The notes beneath the pieces were generated by a model that was not told the DNA's origin, made no database searches, and saw only the letters and a program-made list of their open reading frames with translations. A DNA stretch of 64,000 nucleotides from an uncultured Verrucomicrobiae bacterium (GTDB taxonomy: Bacteria > Verrucomicrobiota > Verrucomicrobiia > Chthoniobacterales > JAATET01), in assembly GCA_963719495.1 (NCBI GenBank), contig CAVRCI010000014.1, positions 96,001 through 160,000 of the forward strand, read 5' to 3'. The position numbers and the translations under genes are program-made. Shown in pieces: positions 4,566 through 21,167 of this stretch; position 1 is the first letter of the stretch, and each line of letters starts with the position of its first letter.

Positions 4566-7301
4566 TCACCCGGATAGCGCTCTCAGCTTTTTCTGATGGG
4601 CGGTGAGCCAGGTCTTTAGCTTGGCGTGGGCGGGGTCCTCGAGTTGCGGGTCGGTTTCGAAGATCGCTCTCGCTTGGTCGCGGGCTTGGAGCATTTCGGC
4701 TTGGTCGCGGTGGAGGTCGCCGAGGCGGAGGGGGGGGAGGCCGGTTTGGGCGGTGCCGATGAGGTCGCCGGGGCCGCGGAGGGCGAGGTCGGCTTCGGCG
4801 ACCCGGAAGCCGTCGGTGGTTTGCTCGAGGACGCTGAGCTTTTCGCGGGCTTCGGGAGTGTCTTTGCCGGGGACGAGGATGCAGTAGCTGGTGTGGGTGC
4901 CGCGGCCGATGCGGCCGCGGAGTTGGTGGAGCTGCGCCAAGCCGAAGCGCTCGGCATTTTCGATGAGCATGACGGTGGCGTTGGGGACGTCGACGCCGAC
5001 TTCGATGACGGTCGTGCTGACGAGGACCTTGGTCTCGGCGGTGCGGAAGGCGGTCATGGCCGCTTCCTTTTCGTCGGGCTTGAGGCGGCCGTGGAGGAGG
5101 CCGCAGGGGTGGGGGGACAGGAGTTCGCTCCAACGGGTGAACTCTTCGGTGGCGGCTTTGGCGGCGAGTTTTTCCGATTCTTCGATGAGGGGGTAGACGA
5201 TGTAAATCTGGCGTCCGGCTTCGATCTGGTCGCGGAGGAATTTTGCGGCTTCGGGGAGTTTGCTGGTGGGGCGGATGCCGGTGATGATTCTGCCGCGGCC
5301 GGGGGGGAGTTCGTTCAGCGTGGTGACGTCGAGGTCGCCGTAGGCGGTCTGCGCGAGGGTGCGGGGGATGGGGGTGGCGGTCATGACGAGGACGTCGGGG
5401 GTGCCGGGTCCGTCGATGAGCTTGGCGCGCTGGAGGACGCCGAATTTGTGCTGCTCGTCGATGATGACGAGGCCGGGATCGGCGAGTTCGGCGGGGTCGT
5501 GCAGGAGGGCGTGCGTGCCGATGAGGAGTTGGGGAGCGCGCCCGTCCCGGGTGCGGGCTTCGGCGTTCCGCCGAAGCGCGGGCGGCGGGGACGCCGCCCG
5601 CTCGCACGCGGGGACGCGTGCGCTCCCCAGAGCGATGCGGGCGGATTCCATTTCTTTTTCCGGCCACCAGACGTGGGGGTAGTCGCTGTTTTCGTCCGCC
5701 AGGTTGGCGGTCCATGGGTTGCGGCAGATGTAGTGGAATTTTTCCTGGAGGTCGGCCTCGAAGCGGATGATTCGGTCGAAGCTCTCTTTTTCCCAGAGCG
5801 GACCCTTTTTTTGTTCGCGGTGGTTGATCTCGTGGACGGTGTAGGATTTGAGGCTGTGGAGGAGGGTGGCCAGGCGATGGAAAACGGGGCGGCCTTCGGC
5901 GTCTTCGCTTTCGACTTGTGGCTCGACGAGGATGTGGACGTGGTCGGGCATGACGCAAGCGGCGTAGAGGTGCCACTTGGACGCGTCGCGGATGTGGAGG
6001 ATGGCGTCGAGGACGATCTGGCGGGCCGCCGGAGTGAGGTGGCGGCGGGCAATCGTCGTGAAGGTGATCATGTATTTGGCCCAGGGGCGCTCGAAGTGGG
6101 GGAGGTTGCGTTTCGAGTAGCGGGTTTCGGTGGGCGGGGCGGGGGTCTCTCGTGGAATGCGCGGCGGCGGGACGCCGCCGCTCGCACCCGGGACGGGTGC
6201 GTTCCCCATGCGGAGCTTGACTTCGACTCCGAGGGGTTCGCAGAGGTGTTTTAGGTTTTTGTAATGCTGGTTTGCGAGGATCTGAGTCGGGGCCATGAGG
6301 ATGGCTTGGTGGCCGGCTTCGATGCCGGTGAGGGCGGCGGCCAGGGCTACCAGGGTTTTTCCGCTGCCGACGTCGCCTTGGAGGAGGCGGGTCATGCGGG
6401 TGGGCTTGGCGAGGTCCTTTTTGATCTCGGCGATGGCCTGGGCTTGGGCGTCGGTGAGGAGGAAGGGAAGGGTGGCGAGGAGTTCGCGGAGGAGGGTGCC
6501 TTCGGGGGCTTTGGGGGAGCCGGGGAGGGTGGCGACGTGGGCTCGGCGGGAGGCGATGAGGGCCTGCATGGCAAAGAATTCTTCGCCGACGAGGGCGCGG
6601 CGGGCGGTTTCGTAGGCTTCGAAGGTGGGTGGGAAATGGAGGGGGCGGAGGTGATCGGTGAATGGGGAATGGTGAATGGTGGGTCTGAGGGTAGGGATCT
6701 GGCTTAGGTCGGTGGCCTCGAGGGCTTCGTGGATGAGTTCGCGGAGCTTTCTTGGGGTGATGCCTTCTCCGGCGGGGTGGACGGGGACGATGCGGTTGAG
6801 GTGAACGAAATCGGTGGGATCGCCTTCTTCGAGGATCTCGAATTCGGGGAAGTCGATGATCGTTCGTTTTCCGCGGAGTTTGGTGCGGCCGTAGACGACG
6901 AGCTGCTGGCCGACGGCGAGCTGTTTGCCGATGTAGGGCATGTTGAACCATCGGCAGGTGACGCGGGCGCCGAAGCCGCTGGGTTCTTCGAGGGTGGCCT
7001 CGTAGCCCTTTTTCCATCCGCCGTAGGGGAGGAAGCGGGCCGAGACGAGGGTGCCGCTGAGGAGGACGGGGTCGACGCTTTCGCCGTCGGGGTAGGGGGC
7101 GAAGTGGCGGCGGTCTTCGTGCCGTCGCGGGTAGTGGGTGACGAGGTCGGCGAGGGTCTCGAGGCCGACTTTGCGGAGGCTGGTGGCCTGTTTGCGGGTG
7201 ATGAAGGGGGCGTCGCTGAGGGGGGTGGTGGGGGGGAGGAGGGGGGGGGCGTGATTGGTGAATGGTGAATGGTGAATGGTGGGGGGGTGCTCGTGGCTCA
7301 T
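4566..7301 (-). CDS. recG: ATP-dependent DNA helicase RecG with an in-frame RAYT transposase insertion
   Basis: YPRRHEDR wedge start, LLQGDVGSGKT, MAPTQILA, IGTHALL, DEQHKFG, MTATPIPRTLA, STTVIEVGVDVP, QLRGRIGRG, DLALRGPGD. Confidence 0.96.
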   Translation of the reverse strand: MSHEHPPTIHHSPFTNHAPPLLPPTTPLSDAPFITRKQATSLRKVGLETLADLVTHYPRRHEDRRHFAPYPDGESVDPVLLSGTLVSARFLPYGGWKKGYEATLEEPSGFGARVTCRWFNMPYIGKQLAVGQQLVVYGRTKLRGKRTIIDFPEFEILEEGDPTDFVHLNRIVPVHPAGEGITPRKLRELIHEALEATDLSQIPTLRPTIHHSPFTDHLRPLHFPPTFEAYETARRALVGEEFFAMQALIASRRAHVATLPGSPKAPEGTLLRELLATLPFLLTDAQAQAIAEIKKDLAKPTRMTRLLQGDVGSGKTLVALAAALTGIEAGHQAILMAPTQILANQHYKNLKHLCEPLGVEVKLRMGNAPVPGASGGVPPPRIPRETPAPPTETRYSKRNLPHFERPWAKYMITFTTIARRHLTPAARQIVLDAILHIRDASKWHLYAACVMPDHVHILVEPQVESEDAEGRPVFHRLATLLHSLKSYTVHEINHREQKKGPLWEKESFDRIIRFEADLQEKFHYICRNPWTANLADENSDYPHVWWPEKEMESARIALGSARVPACERAASPPPALRRNAEARTRDGRAPQLLIGTHALLHDPAELADPGLVIIDEQHKFGVLQRAKLIDGPGTPDVLVMTATPIPRTLAQTAYGDLDVTTLNELPPGRGRIITGIRPTSKLPEAAKFLRDQIEAGRQIYIVYPLIEESEKLAAKAATEEFTRWSELLSPHPCGLLHGRLKPDEKEAAMTAFRTAETKVLVSTTVIEVGVDVPNATVMLIENAERFGLAQLHQLRGRIGRGTHTSYCILVPGKDTPEAREKLSVLEQTTDGFRVAEADLALRGPGDLIGTAQTGLPPLRLGDLHRDQAEMLQARDQARAIFETDPQLEDPAHAKLKTWLTAHQKKLRALSG
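5531..6207 (-). mobile_element. REP-flanked REP-associated tyrosine transposase (RAYT / Y1 HUH) cassette in frame within recG
   Basis: RNLPHF, YMITF, VMPDHVH (HUH), LKSYT, W-x3-SFDRIIR, YICRNP (catalytic Tyr); REP doublet 5531-5628 and REP 6161-6207. Confidence 0.9.
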
Positions 7302-7346: not shown

Positions 7347-9038
7347 CTACGCGGCTGCCCGGATGTCGAGGATCTGGAGTTGGGCGCTGACCCGGCCGTT
7401 CCATTCGTTGCGTTCGAGATGGAACGCGAGGTCCCAGGGGGGGCTGGGGAGGTCGTCGGTGGCTCCGTTGAAGAAGATGGCGGAGAGGGAGCGGCGACCG
7501 ACGGGGAGGTCGAAGCGGAGGTGCTTCTCTTTGAGGACGCGGGGTTCGGCGGTGGGGGTGACTCGGCGGACGAGGAGGACGGGCTGGGGATTCGCCATGC
7601 CGAAGGGTTCGAGCAGCGACTGGCTCTCGAGGAAGTCTTCGTCGAAGGAGGCGAGGGGAATCTCGGCGTCGAGGCGGAGGGTGGGGACGAGGGGGTCGGT
7701 GCCGAGGAGGGTGCGGGCGGCTTGTTCGAAGGCGGCGCGGAAGGCGGGGAAGTCGTCTTCGTGGACCTGGAGGCCGGCGGCCATGTCGTGGCCGCCGAAG
7801 TTGCCGAGGTGAGTGGCGCATTGGCCGAGGGCTTCGACGAGGGAGAGACCGGCGATGCTGCGGCCGCTACCTTTGCCCTGGCCGGTTTCGTCGAATCCGA
7901 CGACGAGGGTGGGGCGGTGGTGGCGGCGCATGACGCGGGAGGCGACGATGCCGAGGACGCCGGTGTGCCAGTCGCGTTGGCCGGCGACGATGGTGGTGTC
8001 GCGGGTGGGGTCGAAATTTTCCGCGATCCAGGCGTCGACTTCGGTGGCGACGGCGCGCTCGATGGATTGGCGTTCGCGGTTCTGCTCGTCGAGGCTGGTG
8101 GCGAGGGTGGCGGCTTCCTGCGGGTCGTTGGTGAGGAGGAGGGAGAGGGAATCCTGGGCGGTGCCGAGGCGGCCGGTGGCGTTGATGCGGGGGCCGAGGC
8201 GGAAGCCGACGTCGGAGGCGCGGATGGGGGCGGAGACGGCGGCGACGCTCATGAGGGCGGCGAGGCCGGGCCAGCGGGTGGTGGCCATCTGGCGGAGGCC
8301 GTGGCGGACGAAGACGCGGTTTTCGCCTTCGAGGGGGACGAGGTCGCAGAGGGTGGCGAGGGCGACGAGGTCGAGGAGATCGCGGAGCTCGAAGCCGGGG
8401 AGGGGGGTGCTTTTGAGGAGAGCGTGGGCGGTCTTGAAGGCGATGCCGGCGCTGCAGAGGGTGTGGAAATCGGTGCCGCCGCACTTGGGGTTGACGCGGG
8501 CGACGCAGTCGGGGCGGTCGCCGTCGGGTTCGTGGTGGTCGAGGACGATGACGTCGATGCCGCGAGCGCGGAGGCTGGCGATTTCGGCGGTGGAATTCGT
8601 GCCGCAGTCGACGGCGATGAGGAGGTCGGGAGTGTGGAGTTCGAGGCAGCGCTCGAGGCCGGCGGCGCTGAGGCCGTAACCTTCGTCGACGCGGTGGGGG
8701 AGGAAGCTGTCGACGCGACCGCCGTAGGCGTGGAGGATACGGTGGAGGATGGTGAGGGAGGTGACGCCGTCGACGTCGTAGTCGCCGTAGAGGGCGATGC
8801 GCTCGTTGGCGCGGAGGGCGGCTTCGATGCGGGTGACGGCGGCGGGCATCTCGGGGAGGAGATTCGGGTCGCGGAGGCGGCGGAGACGGGGCTGGAGAAA
8901 ATCCGCAACGGTGTCTTCGTCGGCGAAACCCTTGGCGGCGACGAGGCTGGCGACGAAGGGGGGGAGGCGGAAGGCGTGCGCGAGTTCGCGGATGATGCCG
9001 GGGTCTCCGGCGGTGGGGAGGATCCAACGACGTTGCAT
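7347..9038 (-). CDS. recJ: Single-stranded-DNA-specific exonuclease RecJ
   Basis: YGDYDVDG, VDCG, LDHH, PRINATGR, GSGRS, GGHDMAAG, LEPFGMANP. Confidence 0.96.
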   Translation of the reverse strand: MQRRWILPTAGDPGIIRELAHAFRLPPFVASLVAAKGFADEDTVADFLQPRLRRLRDPNLLPEMPAAVTRIEAALRANERIALYGDYDVDGVTSLTILHRILHAYGGRVDSFLPHRVDEGYGLSAAGLERCLELHTPDLLIAVDCGTNSTAEIASLRARGIDVIVLDHHEPDGDRPDCVARVNPKCGGTDFHTLCSAGIAFKTAHALLKSTPLPGFELRDLLDLVALATLCDLVPLEGENRVFVRHGLRQMATTRWPGLAALMSVAAVSAPIRASDVGFRLGPRINATGRLGTAQDSLSLLLTNDPQEAATLATSLDEQNRERQSIERAVATEVDAWIAENFDPTRDTTIVAGQRDWHTGVLGIVASRVMRRHHRPTLVVGFDETGQGKGSGRSIAGLSLVEALGQCATHLGNFGGHDMAAGLQVHEDDFPAFRAAFEQAARTLLGTDPLVPTLRLDAEIPLASFDEDFLESQSLLEPFGMANPQPVLLVRRVTPTAEPRVLKEKHLRFDLPVGRRSLSAIFFNGATDDLPSPPWDLAFHLERNEWNGRVSAQLQILDIRAAA

Positions 9039-9122: not shown

Positions 9123-9167
9123 GCGGGCGGGACGCCCCGCTCGCACGCGGGGACGCGTGCGTTCCCC
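9123..9167. repeat. REP type A (same family as the RAYT-flanking REPs)
   Basis: GCGGGCGGGACGCCCCGCTCGCACGCGGGGACGCGTGCGTTCCCC, near-identical to 5578-5628. Confidence 0.85.
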
Positions 9168-21032: not shown

Positions 21033-21167
21033 TTTCGGAGGGACGCCGAAACTCGCACGCGAGGACGCGTGCGATCCCCGATGCAATGCGGTTTGTCCGC
21101 TTCGCGGGTTTGTTGCGAGCGTCCGAGCTGGAAGCTCGGACGGGCGGGCTGGAAGCCCGCGGTCCCC
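21033..21167. repeat. REP cluster: type A (21033-21079) plus CCGCTTCGCGG leader and type C (21116-21167)
   Basis: Hairpins CGCACGCGAGGACGCGTGCG; GTCCGAGCTGGAAGCTCGGAC; GCGGGCTGGAAGCCCGC-GGTCCCC. Confidence 0.8.

Follow-up and report, generated by a model that had tools for sequence, protein, structure and literature searches.

REPtrons combine a gene for a RAYT (REP-associated tyrosine transposase, or TnpA-REP) with flanking REPs (repetitive extragenic palindromes); in the sections of the literature considered here they are exemplified by Escherichia coli TnpA-REP (PDB 4ER8), a class 2 TnpA-Y1 enzyme (PMC6006769, PMC3479197, PMC8266576), the signature of this class being Y-xxx-NP (PMC6006769). 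In those same sections RAYTs appear as extragenic, single-copy and largely vertically inherited genes (10.1101/2021.07.10.451892, 10.1101/119735) whose products cleave single-stranded REPs strand-specifically (PMC8266576), and unexpectedly long members were discarded as gene fusions or annotation errors (PMC6006769). Here we describe a RAYT that lies, together with its REPs, in frame within the helicase gene recG, in a window of 64,000 nucleotides from an uncultured Verrucomicrobiae bacterium (contig CAVRCI010000014.1, positions 96,001 to 160,000; the source genome is called G000 below and its relatives G001–G005 and so on). While RAYTs have been described as non-jumping, extragenic and vertical, with their benefit and the mode of REP spread left open, a whole clade of them is found here inside housekeeping proteins. 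We consider it probable that the recG cassette is a REPtron-like unit living as a translated internal domain of such proteins, which borrows the expression of its host, still serves the spread of REPs and moves by insertion and recombination.

The likeness to REPtrons extends to the HUH and Y-xxx-NP motifs, the fold, the REP and inverted REP flanks with a tetranucleotide foot, and the many dispersed REPs in the genome. However, known REPtrons are free-standing, while the recG unit is part of the host frame, has translated REPs, and recurs, is swapped and is lost at fixed sites. The unit is therefore not a classical REPtron, since it is neither free-standing and extragenic with its own start and stop, nor vertically inherited with a tree congruent to that of the host.

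Two other kinds of element invite comparison. The intragenic REPs of Opitutus terrae and the Rickettsia palindromic elements are, in the parts of that work considered here, in-frame repeats, mostly of 20–30 residues and without an enzyme (PMC3733652). They are likewise in-frame palindromes in housekeeping genes, many of them for DNA repair and tRNA synthetases, Opitutus belongs to the same phylum, and the REP-only RecG alleles described below resemble them; RecG and transposase do not occur in four supplements of that paper. The literature that we covered, which excludes most subscription papers and the supplements of two bioRxiv preprints, yielded no account of a RAYT encoded within the frame of a host gene. 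Inteins, group I introns with homing endonucleases and IStrons also place a nuclease gene in conserved genes at recurrent sites, and they share with the recG cassette a hidden nuclease, patchy presence and the exchange of alleles together with their flanks. The cassette differs from all of them in having no splicing apparatus, in its single-strand HUH enzyme, and in occupying a variable loop and not an active-site motif.

A REP-RAYT cassette within the RecG reading frame

The original prediction, made from the sequence of the window, placed a 225-codon in-frame insert at 5532–6206 between KLRM (M365) and QLLIGTHALL (Q591) of RecG, and this is borne out codon by codon: M365 is encoded by 6209–6207, G366 starts at 6206, P590 is encoded by 5534–5532 and Q591 starts at 5531 (Table 1). 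The junction residues G366 and A589-P590 could be of either host or REP origin. The insert was, however, not purely added: empty alleles in the order carry a variable host loop of 11–36 residues at this place, between motif Ia and GTHAL, and the cassette replaces it. Among solved RecG chains the position corresponds to residues 354–370 of 9wm0. The translated REP hairpins proposed as the boundaries of the cassette are real, except that the right end is composed of a direct REP followed by an inverted REP instead of a single hairpin. The cassette ends form 50-nt inverted arms with an 84% match. The feet are GGAA and GGAG, as opposed to the canonical GT[AG]G of REPtrons, GTAG being found at this position in the relatives G161 and G196. 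No in-frame ATG, GTG or TTG is found in the left linker and no stop interrupts the frame; the host M365 codon sits just 5' of the REP, but is replaced by Thr in G001 and G004.

Table 1. Positions of the recG cassette, its host gene and neighbouring features in the window
Feature	Position	Strand	Basis or remark
recG with cassette	4566..7301	-	911 aa, no internal stop; passes RecG family score; only recG found in assembly
RecG N-terminal half (wedge domain; motif I 6377-6354; motif Ia 6296-6264)	6207..7301	-	Pfam domains and motif strings
RecG C-terminal half (GTHAL, DEQH, motifs III-VI, domain 3)	4566..5531	-	Pfam domains and motif strings
Cassette REP - RAYT - REP - inverted REP, 225 codons	5532..6206	-	In-frame translation
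Left REP, GGAA foot and hairpin 6183-6206, second hairpin 6162-6180	6162..6206	-	Translated
RAYT (HUH/Y1) domain, aa 394-545; H454-V-H456 at 5942-5934; Y524 at 5732-5730	5667..6122	-	Profiles, alignment, model
Second REP, direct orientation, GGAG foot and hairpin 5603-5627, second hairpin 5578-5601	5578..5627	-	Direct repeat; translated
Inverted REP closing the cassette (5558-5576, 5531-5555)	5531..5576	-	Translated
Host codons 336-365, co-exchanged with the cassette allele, ~90 bp	6207..6296	-	Informative sites and divergence windows
recJ	7347..9038	-	Directly upstream of recG, same strand, 45-nt gap
Dispersed copy of the cassette REP, upstream of recJ	9142..9166	-	Another starts at 21054

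The host is a genuine RecG. The whole 911-residue protein scores 735 on the RecG equivalog NF008168 (cut-off 718), contains the wedge domain and the motifs of a superfamily 2 (SF2) helicase, and its full-length AlphaFold model has RecG 1gm5 as the closest structural match. All nine helicase motif strings that we sought are present, two N-terminal and seven C-terminal of the insert, so that the motifs are indeed intact on both sides as predicted. A tblastn search with both halves over the assembly (98.6% complete) revealed no second recG, the next strong match being an Mfd-like frame. Misassembly, which would have undermined the original prediction, is excluded because G003 has this cassette too, with the same junctions. 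The host part evolves under purifying selection, with a ratio of nonsynonymous to synonymous divergence (dN/dS) of 0.06–0.31 in 14 pairs, and together with the single copy this suggests that RecG function would be unharmed by the insert. The locus offers material for asking how an SF2 helicase domain accommodates 225 extra residues at its centre.

Both junctions are in frame in all 18 recG places found in the order, and 17 recG inserts measured between fixed anchors have 12 different lengths, from 588 to 699 nt, every one of them preserving the frame. Inteins start with C, S or A, end in H-N and are followed by C, S or T, while the junction residues here (G, P and Q) are none of these, in agreement with the original prediction, and Pfam detects no Hint domain in the protein. 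The catalytic RNA core of a group I or II intron or of an IStron was not found either: a scan of 5000–6800 against Rfam gave no match at E values up to 1. The RAYT is thus a passenger in the RecG loop, as had been proposed, and it is most likely expressed from the host gene as part of the RecG chain, given the missing start in the left linker, the missing stop and the frame kept in 18 out of 18 places.

Identity and fold of the embedded RAYT

The motifs named in the original prediction as hallmarks of RAYTs, namely VMPDHVH (residues 450–456, HUH), SFDRIIR and YICRNP (with Y524), are all present, the H-V-H and Y-xxx-NP residues also being conserved in the alignment, and the insert passes both family cut-offs: Pfam Y1_Tnp gives 30.1 bits (cut-off 23) and NCBIfam REP_Tyr_transpos NF047646 gives 84.2 (cut-off 80). 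The combination of HUH and Y-xxx-NP motifs, family score and fold places it in class 2 TnpA-Y1. A profile built on RAYTs found 4ER8 in the PDB with E 1.4e-4, while a search with a single RAYT sequence gave no match there. The RAYT modelled alone reached a predicted local distance difference test score (pLDDT) of 86.9, with TnpA-REP 4ER8 as the best match (template modelling score TM 0.65, rmsd 3.3). In the full-length model (20 sequences, pLDDT 73.9, predicted template modelling score pTM 0.58) RecG and the RAYT are both folded, consistent with independent folding, and the linkers 366–403 and 554–587 have pLDDT below 50 and are predicted to be disordered. As TnpA-REP 4ER8 is a monomer in the sections of its description considered here (PMC3479197), such an enzyme would be suited to life as an internal domain.

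We rejected two related families. IS200/IS605 TnpA has the same HUH-Y1 fold and hairpin ends, but the insert has Y-xxx-NP and not Y-xxx-Q, scores 21.2 bits on the IS200 transposase model against a cut-off of 55, and shows no identical multicopy spread in the genome. The GGGG[AT][CG]A[CG] inverted repeats and the C-terminal helix-turn-helix extension of the TIRYT group (subclass 2.1) are absent at the recG cassette, and present at other free-standing family matches in G000.

Judging from its residues the RAYT is catalytically intact: H-x-H and Y-xxx-NP are preserved in 140 out of 145 aligned RAYT rows and in 25 of the 28 that are RecG-borne, and its dN/dS is 0.16 between G000 and G003 and 0.10 between G044 and G133. 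It probably still cuts single-stranded REPs and helps them to spread.

Housekeeping genes occupied by the same clade

A six-frame search of 201 genomes of the order, which would also report broken copies, found the RAYT clade in 43 genomes at 57 places, none of which contains an internal stop. The hosts are alanyl-tRNA synthetase (AlaRS, 22 places), RecG (18), threonyl-tRNA synthetase (ThrRS, 8), CarB (2), MetH (1) and leucyl-tRNA synthetase (LeuRS, 1, from a more distant subclade), with four free-standing copies and one unclassified; one of the AlaRS places comes from an unpublished genome, G168. Thus the survey for further in-frame RAYT insertions suggested in the original prediction yields 52 of 57 places embedded in housekeeping genes, with both junctions in frame in all 52, and the remnants left by deletion are also in frame. 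Since the same unit occurs in several unrelated housekeeping genes, RecG looks like a tolerant host and not a partner.

G000 itself has 12 family matches, three of them in frame, inside recG, alaS (G000:C13:378008-381496, locus L003) and leuS (G000:C10:1252-4539, locus L004), each with its own REP type. The alaS and leuS hosts were read from sequence motifs, alaS being confirmed by comparison, and the leuS-borne RAYT belongs to a different subclade. Within the genus, G002 also has a filled alaS, while that of G001, G003 and G004 is empty. In G001 alaS (L094, L097; G001:C1 near 506122) is split into two frames near its C-terminal third, perhaps by a frameshift or an assembly error.

A search for longer proteins gave 1508 matches among 1771 candidates, and the 120 matches listed are fusions with AlaRS, ThrRS, MetH, RecG (20), CarB, pyruvate formate-lyase and two others. 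A chimeric database name, RecG-like helicase/RayT, exists for such proteins, and names of this kind denote real genes, which were filtered out by the family survey as fusions or errors. Among the same 120 matches listed, at least 13 proteins (P0002–P0014; AlaRS and MetH) have two RAYT cassettes each, inserted in separate loops of the chain. A sample across the phylum produced a match at E 1e-45 in only 5 of 301 genomes, so that the clade is not common outside the order among the genomes searched. The four free-standing units (L052, L068, L071, L107; family f15) read through their own REPs and stop just past the inverted REP; the stop of L052 and of L071 overlaps the start codon that follows, and similar genes lie downstream of L052 and L068.

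Alleles of the RecG loop and their exchange

From 41 genomes we recovered 30 recG loci, 9 filled and 21 empty. On the RecG tree (insert removed, 47 rows after two duplicates were dropped, with filled rows enriched by the manner of finding) presence and absence require 11 changes, at least 10 of them forced. Among the best 120 RecG relatives, 119 of which could be parsed, 21 have a RAYT and about 26, as counted by eye, have only REP-derived loops; these include solo copies of a unit that sister proteins carry as a direct repeat on either side of the RAYT, and one RAYT with an internal in-frame deletion. Since the direct REP copies in the window are spaced 579–581 nt apart, a crossover in their foot-proximal part would leave an in-frame REP-only allele. 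A family-level search for further recG alleles added no new genomes. The RecG loop therefore shows empty, filled, REP-only and internally deleted alleles, with RAYTs of at least three lineages, and it is this complete allele series, along with a sharply bounded exchange tract at one site, that the recG locus adds to what is known.

The RecG-borne RAYTs are not one lineage. In a tree of 55 rows (54 of the 57 places plus G005, leaving out one regular-expression miss, the LeuRS copy and the unclassified place) they stand in at least three places, adjoining AlaRS-borne and free-standing RAYTs; they form one clade in 0% of 200 bootstrap trees, at least three changes are forced, and their monophyly is rejected by the approximately unbiased (AU) test with p 2e-23. 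These conclusions rest on the 55-row tree, a 145-row tree being a quick one with long branches and motif-based site labels.

Cassette alleles have also been exchanged between related species, as the following comparisons indicate. The RecG hosts G000, G003, G001 and G004 form a clade, while their cassettes fall into two alleles, one common to G000 and G003 and another, grouping with G005, in G001 and G004. Host sequences of G000 and G004 are 90% identical and their RAYTs 56%; for G034 and G020 the values are 94% and 56%. Conversely, between G001 and G004 the synonymous divergence (dS) of the RAYT is 0.057, as against 0.337 for the host. The informative sites backing the cassette grouping amount to 179 of 179 in the cassette, 23 of 23 in host codons 336–365 and 27 of 93 elsewhere in recG. 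In two same-genus pairs divergence falls to mostly 2–5% from about codon 330–337 to 590–599, a tract that comprises the cassette with ~90 bp upstream and ends within ~10 codons downstream. As a control we used ~80 kb per genome in five pairs, in which 28/137, 0/177, 0/102, 15/139 and 10/156 windows were at or below 5% divergence; the background tracts of low divergence, present in three of the five pairs, are 2–6 kb long, and for G001–G004 the cassette is the least diverged of 177 windows.

What drives this exchange? There is some possibility, which we hold only tentatively, that the unit is an autonomous homing element based on a single-strand HUH nuclease and made within a working host enzyme: the RAYT would nick single-stranded DNA near its own REP ends or a matching host site, and the cassette with a short upstream flank would be copied one way into empty or occupied alleles without any splicing. 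The coincidence of the tract with the cassette and ~90 bp upstream in two same-genus pairs, the contrasting RAYT and host divergences and the shortness of this tract relative to the 2–6 kb background would fit. However, the genus recombines elsewhere as well, both ends of the tract lie in the closest conserved motifs, at which crossovers of ordinary recombination would be expected too, and no exchange tract was seen at alaS between G000 and G002, where the cassettes are no more alike than the host gene. Additionally, the pairs G001–G005 and G044–G133 look vertical, and published RAYTs show no self-transposition in the parts of that study considered here (10.1101/2021.07.10.451892). Homing would add a motor to the REPtron-like unit that we favour, not replace it; if true, no RAYT before it would have been shown to mobilise the gene that encodes it, and nucleases would have, beside introns and inteins, a third route to life within conserved genes. 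The alleles of close relatives represent natural donor, target and product sequences for the questions of RAYT self-movement and of REP entry into coding sequence.

Elsewhere in the window, some stretches are nearly identical to relatives from which G000 otherwise diverges by 13–14%: G000:C14 ~125.8–131.8 kb (window ~29.8–35.8 kb) to G003, and 108–110 and 114–116 kb (window ~12–14 and 18–20 kb) to G001. These tracts are the result of recent cross-species recombination.

Dispersed REPs

The exact pattern of the cassette REP has 84 copies in the G000 genome, so the flanking REP and inverted REP are also dispersed, as in REPtrons. With a general REP pattern, at least five copies are found in 32 of the 43 genomes with the RAYT clade and in 9 of the 158 without it, an association for which a p-value overstates the support since it runs across kin. 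G003 combines 32 REPs with just two family matches, the recG copy among them, and in G002, the only genus member with an empty recG, neither of the recG REP types was found.

Many of the dispersed REPs of G000 are part of a compound unit with further hairpins and sometimes with a second REP family (79 copies), which flanks a free-standing RAYT on contig C4; both families are about tenfold commoner in G000 than in its congeners. Crediting the 84 copies to the recG-borne RAYT is not established, as the second family is equally expanded and 26 of the 84 have a second-type REP within 170 nt. The REPs of G000 and G003 are almost all single, not doublets, and strongly strand-polarised: in G000 the foot is on the C-rich strand in 121 of 125 REPs, as compared to 58% of genes, crudely called, that lie on the G-rich strand; in the nine blocks of G003 sampled, the strand of its 32 copies changes along with the GC skew. 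The skew reaches ~0.2–0.3. A test of strand bias in G002 matched only the two cassette REPs. REP-derived peptides are found in frame in two further long frames without a RAYT, at G000:C2 near 414202 and C8 near 95773 (crude gene calls).

Proposed mechanism and alternatives

Taken as a REPtron-like internal domain, the recG cassette can be explained as follows. A unit of REP, RAYT gene and inverted REP, from a clade centred on this order of Verrucomicrobiota, would live inside conserved housekeeping proteins, with no promoter, start or stop of its own at recG. The GC-rich hairpins would be read as stop-free flexible linkers, allowing the RAYT and the host to fold separately in one chain. Only insertions that keep the frame and fall in a surface loop able to tolerate them would survive, and RecG offers one such loop between motif Ia and GTHAL. 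The RAYT would be kept catalytically intact and, by cutting single-stranded REPs, would probably aid their spread. At the RecG site, different lineages would supply the unit; related species would exchange it through recombination in the adjoining host sequence, and deletions that keep the frame, often between direct REP copies, would remove it. The anatomy, family, frame, host range, polyphyly, allele series, exchange tract and purifying selection are observed directly; translation as one chain, nuclease activity, unharmed RecG function and the routes of gain and loss we infer.

Several observations count against this explanation. The REP copies number 84 in G000 and 7 in G003 despite a 94% identical RAYT, and the second REP family, linked to the free-standing RAYT, is equally expanded in G000 (79 versus 0–8 copies). 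In G002, whose alaS carries a RAYT, the patterns tried matched no dispersed copy, and nine genomes without the clade carry 5–132 REP copies. The catalytic tyrosine is absent from 3 of the 28 RecG-borne rows, RAYT dN/dS is 0.4–0.6 in several within-genus pairs, and values below 1 could reflect selection for folding within the host. One-chain translation is itself deduced from the frame, and the full-length model, with its pTM of 0.58, was built on only 20 sequences.

A neutral relic appears improbable. On this view each gene would have received a single old insertion, passed down vertically while decaying, and the domain would persist only because in-frame loss is slow. RAYTs do group by host site (12 changes, compared to 27.6 in shuffled data), and remnants and catalytic mutants exist. 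On the other hand, the catalytic residues are intact in nearly all rows (140 of 145), the RecG-borne copies are polyphyletic and their alleles recently exchanged, and the many in-frame losses imply that loss is easy.

Still more doubtful is the purpose put forward in the original prediction, namely that RecG brings the RAYT to stalled forks and D-loops and feeds it single-stranded REP hairpins, the fusion being selected for that. With 18 of 57 places RecG ranks second among the hosts, the unit entered it on at least three occasions, and the REP strand bias in G000 might point to a link with replication. As a weak sign, the genomes first found to have a RecG-borne RAYT are richer in REPs (median 38 versus 12), a comparison that is biased, since the pattern was built from recG-flanking REPs, two further RecG hosts identified later already belonged to that group, and kin are not independent. 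We do not accept the strand bias as support, since heptamer repeats in G000 share it (122 of 126) and the RecG hosts outside the genus, G020 and G023, have mostly REP doublets at the places listed, in contrast to the polarised single REPs of G000 and G003. The clade is commoner in AlaRS, 34 of the 52 embedded copies reside in enzymes whose substrate is not DNA (ThrRS, CarB, MetH and LeuRS also being hosts), and four stand alone. RecG often loses the unit, its RAYTs are polyphyletic, and the linkers are long, variable, unconserved, REP-derived and predicted to be disordered, which weakens the idea of a tether further.

Least likely of all is that the cassette is removed after transcription or translation in the manner of an intron or intein, leaving a normal mature RecG: the two cassette ends can pair as RNA and so join the junctions, but the Rfam scan is empty, Hint domain and splicing residues are missing, and all 52 embedded places, like the deletion remnants, preserve the 3' frame, for which an RNA intron would have no need.

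Other observations

The position of recJ relative to recG makes it the probable source of the recG transcript. A heptamer tandem repeat is translated twice in RecG, giving TIHHSPFT at residues 8 and 208 (window 7257–7280 and 6657–6680, minus strand). Arrays of this heptamer number 126 in the G000 genome, 122 of them on the C-rich strand, and a related repeat occupies the right linker of G005.

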